Part shown: in pieces, positions 12,461 to 13,962 of the stretch
Position numbering within the stretch: the stretch's first letter is position 1
Layout of the letters: every line of letters starts with the position of its first letter
From: Enterobacteria phage KhF3
Sequence record: KT184315.1
DNA: 64,000 nucleotides
Direction: 5' to 3' (one strand)
Notes under the pieces: model-generated
Databases searched by the model: none
The model's input: only the letters and a program-made list of their open reading frames with translations
What the model was told of the DNA's origin: nothing
Made by a program: the position numbers and the translations under genes

Positions 12461-12832
12461 ATGAAAGCTAAGAGTGCAAAAGACTTTTATTGCTTCCTAC
12501 AATCCTATATCAATTCCGTGCAAAATGGTGAAAGGTACAACCTTAATGATGTTATCCCAACACCTTTGACATGGAGACTCAGTAAATGGCCTGAAGAAGA
12601 TATTACACCAACAATCGAACAGCGTACCTACAAACCTGAAATCAATATTCCAGACTCTGAGAATCTATTATACCCAATGTTCCATATTGTTGGTCTTGGA
12701 AGATTCCTTATGGATATCCAGTATGTAATTGGTAAAGGTTATAAGGTTAAAGGTATTGTCGTTGGTGATGTATCTCCGAATCACAAAGGTTATTTTAGAC
12801 TAAACGCACATTTAGAGGCTGAAAAGAAATGA
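12461..12832 (+). CDS. hypothetical protein, paralog of the N-terminal domain of the next gene
   Basis: Shares conserved residues with 12829..13962 N-terminus (WPE.DI, LLY, FMD.QY). Confidence 0.5.
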   Translation: MKAKSAKDFYCFLQSYINSVQNGERYNLNDVIPTPLTWRLSKWPEEDITPTIEQRTYKPEINIPDSENLLYPMFHIVGLGRFLMDIQYVIGKGYKVKGIVVGDVSPNHKGYFRLNAHLEAEKK

Positions 12833-13962
12833 TTAAAGCAAAGACTTACCCAGACTTCAAAGAGTTTGTGAAGGGCTTCATTGCAAACGTAAAGGCTGGT
12901 AAGAGATATGATTTTAGAACATATCAAGAGGCTATTTTACCACTTACCTATAGTTCATATTGGCCTGAAGCTGATATTGCAGAAGTTGAGAAGTTTGACT
13001 ACAAACCAGACTACAAAGTCCCATTTAGTGATGAGTTGCTTTACAGCGTTGGTGCTCAAATGAGAACTTCTGACTTCTTCATGGACTTACAATATGCAAT
13101 TATCAATGGTAAAGATGTTGATACAGTTTATTGTGAATGGCTGGCAAGGGTTAAACCATTCTCAATGTTGAATGCTAAGTTGAAGGATGCTATCAAGCCA
13201 CCAGCAATTACTCAGCAGCCAACAGGTCAAACAGTTAATGAGGGTGGCACACTTACTCTAACCATTCTAGCAACTAACGCCACTGGATATCAGTGGAAAA
13301 AGGATGGTGAGGACATCCCTAGTGCCAATTCTGCAACTTACACAAAACAGTCAGTAGCACCTTCTGACGCTGGTTCATACACTTGTGTTGTATCTGGAGA
13401 AGGTGGAACAAGTGTTACCTCAGATGCAGCAACAGTGACTGTGAACGCACTACCTGTGATTACCAAGCAACCTTCTAACCAGACTATTAATGAAGGTGGA
13501 AACATCAACTTAGCAGTTACTGCAACAGGTGCAACAGGTTACCAGTGGAAGAAAGATGGCTCTGACATTCCTTCAGCTACAAATGATACCTATAGCAAGT
13601 CTGGTGCTCTGCCAGCAGATGCAGGTTCATACACTTGCGTTGTAACAGGTGCAGGTGGCTCTGTAACGTCTAACGCAGCAACAGTTACTGTGAATGCACT
13701 TCCGGTAATCACTCAACAGCCAACCAATCAAGAAATCAATGAAGGTGAGACCTTAACACTGAATGTTGTGGCAACAGGTGCAACAGGTTACCAGTGGAAG
13801 AAAGGTGAGGAAGATATCCTTGATGCAACCGCTGCAACTTACACTAAAGAAGGTGCAACCGCTGCTGATTCAGGAAGCTACACCTGTGTAGTTACTGGTG
13901 CAGGTGGCTCTGTAACATCTAATGCAGCAACAGTTACAGTTAACCCAGCAGGGGAGGCATAA
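12829..13962 (+). CDS. Ig-like domain repeat protein (possible capsid decoration or adhesin)
   Basis: Three tandem ~85-aa repeats with GATGYQWKK and GSYTCVV motifs. Confidence 0.65.
   Translation: MIKAKTYPDFKEFVKGFIANVKAGKRYDFRTYQEAILPLTYSSYWPEADIAEVEKFDYKPDYKVPFSDELLYSVGAQMRTSDFFMDLQYAIINGKDVDTVYCEWLARVKPFSMLNAKLKDAIKPPAITQQPTGQTVNEGGTLTLTILATNATGYQWKKDGEDIPSANSATYTKQSVAPSDAGSYTCVVSGEGGTSVTSDAATVTVNALPVITKQPSNQTINEGGNINLAVTATGATGYQWKKDGSDIPSATNDTYSKSGALPADAGSYTCVVTGAGGSVTSNAATVTVNALPVITQQPTNQEINEGETLTLNVVATGATGYQWKKGEEDILDATAATYTKEGATAADSGSYTCVVTGAGGSVTSNAATVTVNPAGEA
13195..13950 (+). repeat. three tandem coding repeats (~250 bp each)
   Basis: Repeated ACAGGTGCAACAGGTTACCAGTGGAAGAAAG blocks. 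Confidence 0.7.

Follow-up and report, generated by a model that had tools for sequence, protein, structure and literature searches.

Head decoration locus of Enterobacteria phage KhF3, with an ancient stand-alone paralog of the capsid-binding domain

A stretch of 64,000 nucleotides of the genome of Enterobacteria phage KhF3 (KT184315.1; hereafter the window) carries, at positions 12461-13962, two adjacent genes coding for a protein of 123 amino acids (aa) and for a 377-aa protein with three immunoglobulin (Ig)-like repeats. The larger product is an orthologue of the known Ounavirinae Hex-Dec (Hoc-like) head decoration protein, all of whose testable defining features it shows. The smaller one is a paralog of the capsid-binding domain (CapBD) at its N terminus. 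Taken as a whole, the locus very probably represents Hex-Dec decoration of the head accompanied by an ancient CapBD-only duplicate, which would act as an accessory, non-structural or transiently bound factor. Most of the locus is ordinary and already explained, and the paralog is its one open element. The window is part of a Felixounavirus genome (a Felix O1/wV8-like myovirus), and more than 200 Felixounavirus records match the region at 90-97% nucleotide identity; one record among these otherwise enterobacterial matches is named as a Staphylococcus phage. The open reading frames (ORFs) and domains concerned are the following:

12461..12832, plus strand: ORF of the 123-aa paralog, an Ig-less, stand-alone relative of CapBD (phrog_4463)
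12829..13962, plus strand: Hex-Dec ORF, 377 aa, three-Ig form (PDB matches 9ncf_S and 9c2d_S; phrog_3995)
12829..13200, plus strand: CapBD of Hex-Dec, residues 1-124, with Arg79 and Arg107 (121/123 residues identical to the Bas63 CapBD)
13201..13452, plus strand: I-set Ig-like repeat 1 (Pfam, repeat comparison)
13453..13701, plus strand: I-set Ig-like repeat 2, absent from most of the two-Ig relatives examined
13702..13959, plus strand: I-set Ig-like repeat 3 and the short C-terminal tail PAGEA (Pfam, repeat comparison)
13962..14426, plus strand: GH24 endolysin (PF00959, 1e-40; phrog_7)

In a phmmer search of the PDB, the 377-aa protein matched 9ncf_S, the "immunoglobulin-like domain protein" of Bas63 (E=3e-268), and 9c2d_S, gp20 of Sf14 (E=2e-168); it is 88% identical to Bas63 Hex-Dec over its whole length and at 121 of 123 positions within CapBD. 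Electron cryomicroscopy (cryo-EM) of these two phages has demonstrated that the homologues bind as monomers, through an N-terminal CapBD of ~120 residues, to the centres of the facet-edge, pentamer-adjacent hexamers (one per asymmetric unit, so that 60 of the 80 hexamers in the T=9 head are occupied), while their Ig domains are flexible and unresolved (PMC12609058, PMC11821841). In Sf14 gp20, salt bridges link both Arg79 and Arg107 to Asp221 of the major capsid protein (PMC11821841). Both arginines are present in the KhF3 protein and are invariant across 25 distinct CapBD sequences. The gene of the major capsid protein, sought for its Asp221 partner residue, was not found within the 64-kb window. 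KhF3 Hex-Dec shares with Bas63 Hex-Dec (9NCF chain S) and Sf14 gp20 (9C2D/9C3A chain S) the same Arg79/Arg107 pair, as well as the same place upstream of the endolysin gene; the number of Ig domains is three in KhF3, four in Bas63 and three, as reported, in Sf14 gp20. In Bas63 the gene and the structural module are more than 10 kb apart (PMC12609058); in KhF3, likewise, the gene is not part of the head module but directly precedes that of the endolysin. The orthologous gp36 of Felix O1 (31.6 kDa, then named "major tail protein") was detected in virions at 44% coverage.

Binding to hexamer centres in the capsid of KhF3 itself is thus proposed by homology, from the Bas63 and Sf14 structures and from the mass spectrometry of Felix O1 virions. 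By analogy with these structures, CapBD would plug the centre of 60 facet-edge hexamers through electrostatic contacts, with Arg79 and Arg107 anchored, as in Sf14, to Asp221 of the major capsid protein, and its site selectivity would reflect the way in which facet-edge hexamers differ from facet-centre ones. The three I-set Ig domains would project outward from the head as a flexible fibre, for which a role in adhesion, or in aggregation- or environment-sensing, is presumed by analogy with T4 Hoc. The Bas63 CapBD structure has been described as having pseudo-C2 symmetry (PMC12609058). In a profile-profile comparison of the two halves of the KhF3 domain, residues 9-28 (12853-12912) were aligned weakly with residues 79-98 (13063-13122; hhalign P~1e-3, probability 19%), so the aligned helices may be a faint sequence echo of this symmetry.

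Most database records label the protein "tail protein" or "putative tail protein", PHROG gives "tail protein" for phrog_3995, and the Ig region also matches "major tail protein" families. It is nevertheless extremely improbable that the 377-aa product is a component of the tail, as GenBank annotates it, since the matches to tail families are restricted to the promiscuous Ig domains, and the authors of the Bas63 study name this very label as a mis-annotation (PMC12609058). The location of the homologues on capsid hexamers, as determined by cryo-EM, rules the label out. The names in use for Hex-Dec in most records are "tail protein", "major tail protein" or "tail fiber protein".

The relationship between the two ORFs is well supported. 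BLASTP aligned the 123-aa protein with residues 2-100 of Hex-Dec (37% identity, E=3e-17), and 45 of 120 residues are identical in a global alignment. The Smith-Waterman score was 146, compared with 27.2 +/- 4.8 (maximum 52) for 2,000 shuffled sequences (z=24.8), and the family profiles recognize each other's members (phrog_3995 against the paralog, E=3e-15; phrog_4463 against Hex-Dec, E=3e-16). A joint alignment of both families contains 35 columns invariant in both (including the motifs DF..F, PLT, WPE.DI, LLY, F.MD.QY and LNA.L) and 43 fixed differences. A preliminary description of this DNA, made from the sequence alone, had regarded the 123-aa protein as a paralog of the first ~120 residues of the next protein and had set the pairwise alignment of the two N-terminal domains as a check; the similarity proved to be far above chance (E=3e-17; z=24.8). 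The same description correctly recognized three tandem Ig-like repeats in the larger protein, corresponding to three Pfam Ig stretches, and an adjacent lysozyme gene, i.e. the GH24 ORF (13962-14426) that directly follows. Its suggestion of a capsid decoration or adhesion module is borne out by experiments on near-identical homologues, namely cryo-EM in the case of Bas63 and Sf14 and mass spectrometry of virions for Felix O1 gp36.

The further proposal of the preliminary description, that recent domain shuffling had shaped the locus, did not hold. A recent tandem duplication, generating both the paralogous pair and the triple Ig repeat, might be suspected from the adjacency of the paralogous sequences, from the tandem arrangement of the repeats, and from the variation in Ig copy number among near-identical phages. 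However, the CapBD-coding and paralog DNA are only 49% identical, with saturated synonymous sites (proportion of synonymous differences, pS=0.77; dN=0.68), which indicates that the paralog is ancient. Moreover, the pair occurs, with its order conserved, in at least three genera (Felixounavirus, Mooglevirus and Suspvirus) and in a divergent metagenomic phage. The Ig repeats tell the same story: they are 67-72% identical to each other, at the protein and DNA level alike, while each shows 87-99% identity to its positional counterpart in other phages, and they are therefore old and positionally orthologous. A recent origin of the pair and of the repeats is thus highly improbable; it is ruled out by synonymous saturation together with Ig positional orthology, and only the changes in copy number are recent.

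The Ig part of Hex-Dec was recognized by the Pfam models Ig_3 (6.6e-33), Ig_2 (3.8e-27) and I-set (7e-25), each in three stretches, with domain limits at residues ~124-207, 208-290 and 291-372; the borders of the repeats were set from the protein sequence. Tandem Repeats Finder reported no period of ~250 nt at this place, as identity among the repeats is only 67-72%. Across 26 related loci, the length of Hex-Dec takes discrete values of ~210, 294, 377 and 461 aa, equivalent to one to four Ig domains. The two-Ig forms mostly contain Ig1 and the last Ig (some with chimeric Ig2/Ig3 or Ig1/Ig3 junctions), and the four-Ig forms have one additional, distinct repeat. What has changed recently at this locus, at the sequence level, is the number of complete Ig repeats, gained or lost as close relatives recombined in register. 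The variation itself is already published, Felixounavirus species being known to carry one to four Ig domains in Hex-Dec (PMC12609058).

The paralog is known elsewhere as Felix O1 ORF37, wV8 gp42, Sf14 FDI99_gp021, bas63_0125 and VpaE1_040. It is present in ~232 of 252 Ounavirinae records, with identities of 84-100% in Felixounavirus and 74-77% in Mooglevirus and Suspvirus, and a version ~48% identical occurs in an 87-kb metagenomic phage in which the gene order (gp43-like gene, paralog, Hex-Dec, lysozyme) is kept. When 1.84 billion representative proteins were searched exhaustively with a profile, only 12 clusters were returned, and the CapBD domain is therefore rare and lineage-restricted. 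No match to the paralog was found in Pfam, NCBIfam or PADLOC. Distant CapBD homologues carry other modules, i.e. I-set Ig domains in the Felixounavirus group, Big_2-type domains in the Erwinia phages (Kolesnikvirus) and other Ig-like domains in metagenomic proteins, and one of them (P0104) consists of CapBD and a charged tail rich in Lys, Ser and Glu only. As judged from these sequences, CapBD is a modular anchor that has been fused to differing display modules on a deeper time-scale. In the literature searched, Hex-Dec is discussed only in the Bas63 and Sf14 structural papers; neither covers the stand-alone paralog, there being no mention in them of Sf14 gp21, of the Bas63 neighbour gene or of the word "paralog" (PMC12609058, PMC11821841).

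The expression signals around the two genes, all on the same strand, are the following:

12423..12439, plus strand: weak terminator-like element, a GC hairpin (GGGGCttatGCCCC) with TTT behind it, separating the paralog from the upstream gp43-like gene, whose stop is at 12413
12450..12454, plus strand: Shine-Dalgarno sequence AAGGA of the paralog, 6 nt ahead of its ATG (sequence reading)
12815..12818, plus strand: Shine-Dalgarno sequence GAGG of Hex-Dec, inside the 3' end of the paralog gene
14436..14463, plus strand: strong intrinsic terminator AGGCTCC-TTCG-GGAGCCT followed by TTTTTTATTTT, closing the paralog/Hex-Dec/endolysin unit

The ORFs of the paralog and Hex-Dec overlap through an ATGA stop/start at 12829-12832, and this overlap is conserved. 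The Shine-Dalgarno region of Hex-Dec, TTAGAGGCT, is likewise kept in 26 of 26 junctions. The embedded GAGG together with the ATGA overlap suggests translational coupling of the paralog to Hex-Dec. The next junction is equally tight, the ATG of the endolysin gene overlapping the Hex-Dec stop codon by one base (TAATG), and it is conserved in relatives. The terminator at 14436..14463 is annotated at the equivalent place in AYO145A. A site homologous to the upstream hairpin appears as a rho-independent terminator in the AYO145A annotation and also in the Felix O1 terminator table; in the window it was not called by the terminator scan, because its T tract is short.

Judging by its sequence evolution, the paralog is a real gene under purifying selection, with its own ribosome-binding site. 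Over 28 sequences, the median pairwise dN/dS is 0.12 (CapBD, 0.044; endolysin, 0.071), and the length of the product is constant (122-124 aa). These values, as well as the ribosome-binding site, argue strongly against the view that the 123-aa ORF is a decaying remnant or a mis-call, or that it is joined to Hex-Dec by programmed frameshifting. The ORF is a pseudogene remnant in 19 records and the Hex-Dec frame in KhF3 is -1 relative to the paralog, both of which could be taken in favour of this view; Fraser et al. reportedly found in 2006 that phage Ig domains are often appended through frameshifts, which was counted on the same side. However, a stop codon lies 0-4 codons upstream of the Hex-Dec ATG, in the Hex-Dec frame, in all of the 26 loci, the frame relation differs in Suspvirus, the junction sequence is not conserved, and Felix O1 gp36 is listed with 31.6 kDa, the mass of an unfused two-Ig product. 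A remnant, mis-called or frameshift-fused ORF is consequently scarcely credible. Fusion by programmed frameshifting is ruled out by the in-frame stops at 26/26 loci and the unconserved junction, and a pseudogene in this genome by the dN/dS of 0.12 and the constant length; pseudogene status is true only of the REP5/Z31/mio/SP116 subclade.

The 19 records in which the paralog is a remnant (REP5-12, Tf, SP116, mio, Z31, fBSPA4, fKMPT1, P54, EcF-vB and two CECAV phages) come from several hosts and isolation sources. They share a single junction with a lost start codon, frameshifts and an internal deletion of ~220 nt; in every other record the same query matched in two pieces, with a span of 464 nt. 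The shared junction points to one ancestral loss of the paralog in a viable and widespread subclade. In REP5, Hex-Dec is an intact two-Ig form without the paralog. In Z31, the Hex-Dec gene (2998-3570 of the Z31 stretch) is split into a 134-aa CapBD-only ORF and a 55-aa ORF holding the end of an Ig domain; this phage is a natural "Ig-less Hex-Dec, no paralog" genotype. Since the paralog has been lost in 19 records and Hex-Dec is split in Z31, both genes are dispensable for plaque formation.

The paralog keeps the CapBD fold, according to structural modelling. An AlphaFold2 (AF2) model computed on an alignment enlarged by distant homologues reached pLDDT 76 and pTM 0.74 (an earlier model, on a shallow alignment, had pLDDT 60). 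In a Foldseek search of the PDB, this model retrieved only 9c2d_S and 9ncf_S (TM 0.72/0.71, probability 1.00), and in BFVD only Ounavirinae proteins, with neither Hoc nor pb10 among them; at the sequence level the paralog matches 9ncf_S as well (phmmer E=6e-12). In other respects it departs from Hex-Dec. It ends after CapBD, with no Ig-like display domain detected by Pfam or NCBIfam. Position 79, occupied by Arg in CapBD, is Gly in 25 of 25 distinct paralogs, and position 107 is Q, H, N or K, Arg being found only in the divergent P0098. The paralog is basic (isoelectric point, pI, 8.6) and CapBD acidic (pI 5.5), and it evolves ~3x faster than CapBD. Its most conserved blocks, LLYPMFHIVGLG.FLMDIQ and HKGYFRLNA, are homologous to the CapBD segments bearing R79 and R107-K109. 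Compared with Bas63 and Sf14 Hex-Dec, the paralog is alike in its CapBD fold, but it differs in lacking Ig domains and anchor arginines, in its basic charge and in not having been seen in virions.

By reverse transcription-PCR, ORFs 36 and 37 of Felix O1 are both of the late class (60 min peak), together with portal, tail and fibre genes. In the virion proteome of the same phage (gel and whole-phage shotgun mass spectrometry), ORF37 is not listed, though proteins of 9.7-13.7 kDa were detected. The VpaE1 paper gives 22 virion proteins, all of which, except gp54, gp58 and gp68, have Felix O1 counterparts identified earlier; because only these three lacked such counterparts, it can be deduced from that text that VpaE1_040 was not detected in VpaE1 virions. 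The Sf14 supplement lists no mass-spectrometry hits for gp21; Table 1 of that study is restricted to predicted structural proteins and hence uninformative on the paralog. In cryo-EM of Bas63 and Sf14, which both encode the paralog, no density was reported on the remaining hexamers (PMC12609058, PMC11821841).

Taking into account the conserved fold, the strict linkage and co-expression with Hex-Dec and the absence from virions, we tentatively favour the reading of the paralog as an accessory factor in head decoration, either non-structural or bound only transiently. The gene is an ancient duplicate of CapBD alone; it is transcribed late, as is Hex-Dec, and the translation of the two is apparently coupled. 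Such a protein may recognize capsid hexamers in a state or position unused by Hex-Dec or, alternatively, may modulate Hex-Dec loading, and would not constitute a second stable decoration. A narrower version is doubtful: the paralog might be a second ligand of hexamer centres, transient or of low affinity, acting on facet-centre or skewed procapsid hexamers and thereby helping to explain the 60/80 pattern of Hex-Dec.

Several points weigh against the accessory-factor interpretation. The putative role of the paralog is deduced from homology, expression class and absence from virions. The conserved blocks cannot be read as an interface, because they are also core helix and strand elements. Hex-Dec is not strictly dependent on the paralog, since the 19-record subclade without it mostly keeps Hex-Dec intact. 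Absence from a shotgun proteome is a weak negative for a 14-kDa protein present at possibly <=20 copies, the Felix O1 virion list was cut at 25% coverage, and icosahedral averaging would smear a monomer located on a 3-fold axis.

On a rival reading, the paralog would be a stable, low-copy or weakly bound Ig-less decoration of the mature head, e.g. one capping the 20 facet-centre (3-fold) hexamers that are free of Hex-Dec, and proteomics and symmetry-averaged cryo-EM would have missed it. The shared CapBD fold, the late co-expression and coupling with Hex-Dec, the conservation of the blocks homologous to the CapBD contact loops and the existence of Ig-less CapBD forms such as P0104 are consistent with this role, and the altered contacts and basic charge could suit the acidic centre of 3-fold hexamers, where the Asp221 side chains are shifted. 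We consider it unlikely, however, given that no density was reported on the facet-centre hexamers of Bas63 or Sf14, and that the paralog is missing from the Felix O1 proteome and, as deduced from the VpaE1 text, also from that of VpaE1 virions.

It is also possible, if on balance rather improbable, that nothing but the fold was retained and that the paralog has been turned to a target unrelated to the capsid, for instance, late in infection, a protein of the host or of the phage. The loss of both anchor arginines, the reversed charge and the 43 fixed differences from CapBD, its ~3-fold faster evolution, its absence from virions and its dispensability in a natural subclade would all agree with such a change. 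On the other hand, strict long-term linkage and translational coupling to Hex-Dec are found in every lineage having the paralog, the late expression class is common with structural genes, and no defence-related or other family was matched, so positive evidence for another target is lacking.

Hex-Dec works like two well-known decoration proteins, T4 Hoc and T5 pb10, but belongs to neither family. T4 Hoc is likewise a dispensable monomer of hexamer centres with an Ig-like string projecting from the head, and it occupies essentially all hexamers; its capsid-binding domain is not known to have a stand-alone paralog. Its Ig domains are homologous to those of Hex-Dec at the profile level (phrog_2973 and phrog_4069, "Hoc-like"), but the PHROG Hoc matches are confined to Hex-Dec residues ~120-290. 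The capsid-binding domain is C-terminal in Hoc and N-terminal in Hex-Dec, and the two domains are topologically distinct according to the Bas63 authors (PMC12609058). T5 pb10 resembles Hex-Dec more closely in layout, with a capsid-binding domain at the N terminus, a C-terminal Ig-like domain and one monomer per hexamer centre; it has a single Ig domain and binds all 120 hexamers (PMC5292684). Its Ig domain is homologous (5lxk_A, E=1e-11; 8zvi_a, E=8e-12), but the matches are limited to Hex-Dec residues 131-207, with no similarity in the capsid-binding part. Neither Hoc nor pb10 was retrieved from the PDB or BFVD by the CapBD-type model of the paralog.

A further parallel is gp038 of the Kolesnikvirus phages phiEa21-4 and phiEa104 (a "BIG2 domain-containing protein"), a distant CapBD homologue (profile E=8e-11) that also sits between the gp43-like gene and the endolysin gene and keeps a basic residue at positions 79 and 107. 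It differs in having a Big_2-type display module instead of I-set Ig domains and in lacking a stand-alone paralog; the CapBD duplication therefore post-dates the split from Kolesnikvirus or was lost there. A Kolesnikvirus-type homologue in Enterobacter phage phi63_307 is mislabelled "cgkA: kappa-carrageenase".

Other features of the window place the locus within the genome:

394-3493, minus strand: portal and large terminase (TerL)
3923-9170, minus strand: array of 26 tRNA genes (2 tRNA-Met, 2 tRNA-Gln, 3 tRNA-Leu and 2 tRNA-Lys among them)
9336-10751, minus strand: 471-aa Ro-like RNA-binding protein (phrog_850, E=1e-182; DUF2828 per the Sf14 record)
11823-12413, plus strand: 196-aa gp43-like protein (phrog_4034), directly upstream of the decoration locus
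35182-36963, minus strand: 593-aa nicotinamide phosphoribosyltransferase (NAMPT) homologue (phrog_448, E=7e-202)

The tRNA array, typical for Felix O1-like phages, separates the portal and TerL genes, ~9 kb from the Hex-Dec gene, from the decoration-lysis cluster, and is directly adjoined by the gene of the Ro-like protein. The gp43-like protein keeps the same position, at 28% identity (E=9e-18), even in Kolesnikvirus phiEa104, a phage that lacks the paralog. Downstream of the endolysin gene are located rIIB/rIIA, NAMPT, ribonucleotide reductases, primase-helicase, DNA polymerase and ligase, the NAMPT homologue being situated in the early/metabolic region with NrdD and NrdA.

The common database label "tail protein" is wrong for the Hex-Dec gene. 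CapBD represents a high-specificity, lineage-restricted anchor with interchangeable modules, which matters for phage display where Felix O1-type phages serve in therapy or diagnostics. Sf14 and Bas63, too, carry directly upstream of Hex-Dec a stand-alone copy of this anchor, conserved and expressed late, which the structural studies leave unmentioned. If the paralog binds capsids, it would bear on how decoration proteins distinguish geometrically different hexamers; were it indeed a second ligand of hexamer centres, the decoration pattern of the T=9 Ounavirinae head would be the product of two paralogous, geometry-selective binders, with the conformation of the capsid protein not being the sole factor. 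If it does not bind capsids, it would provide an example of a structural domain recruited to another role.

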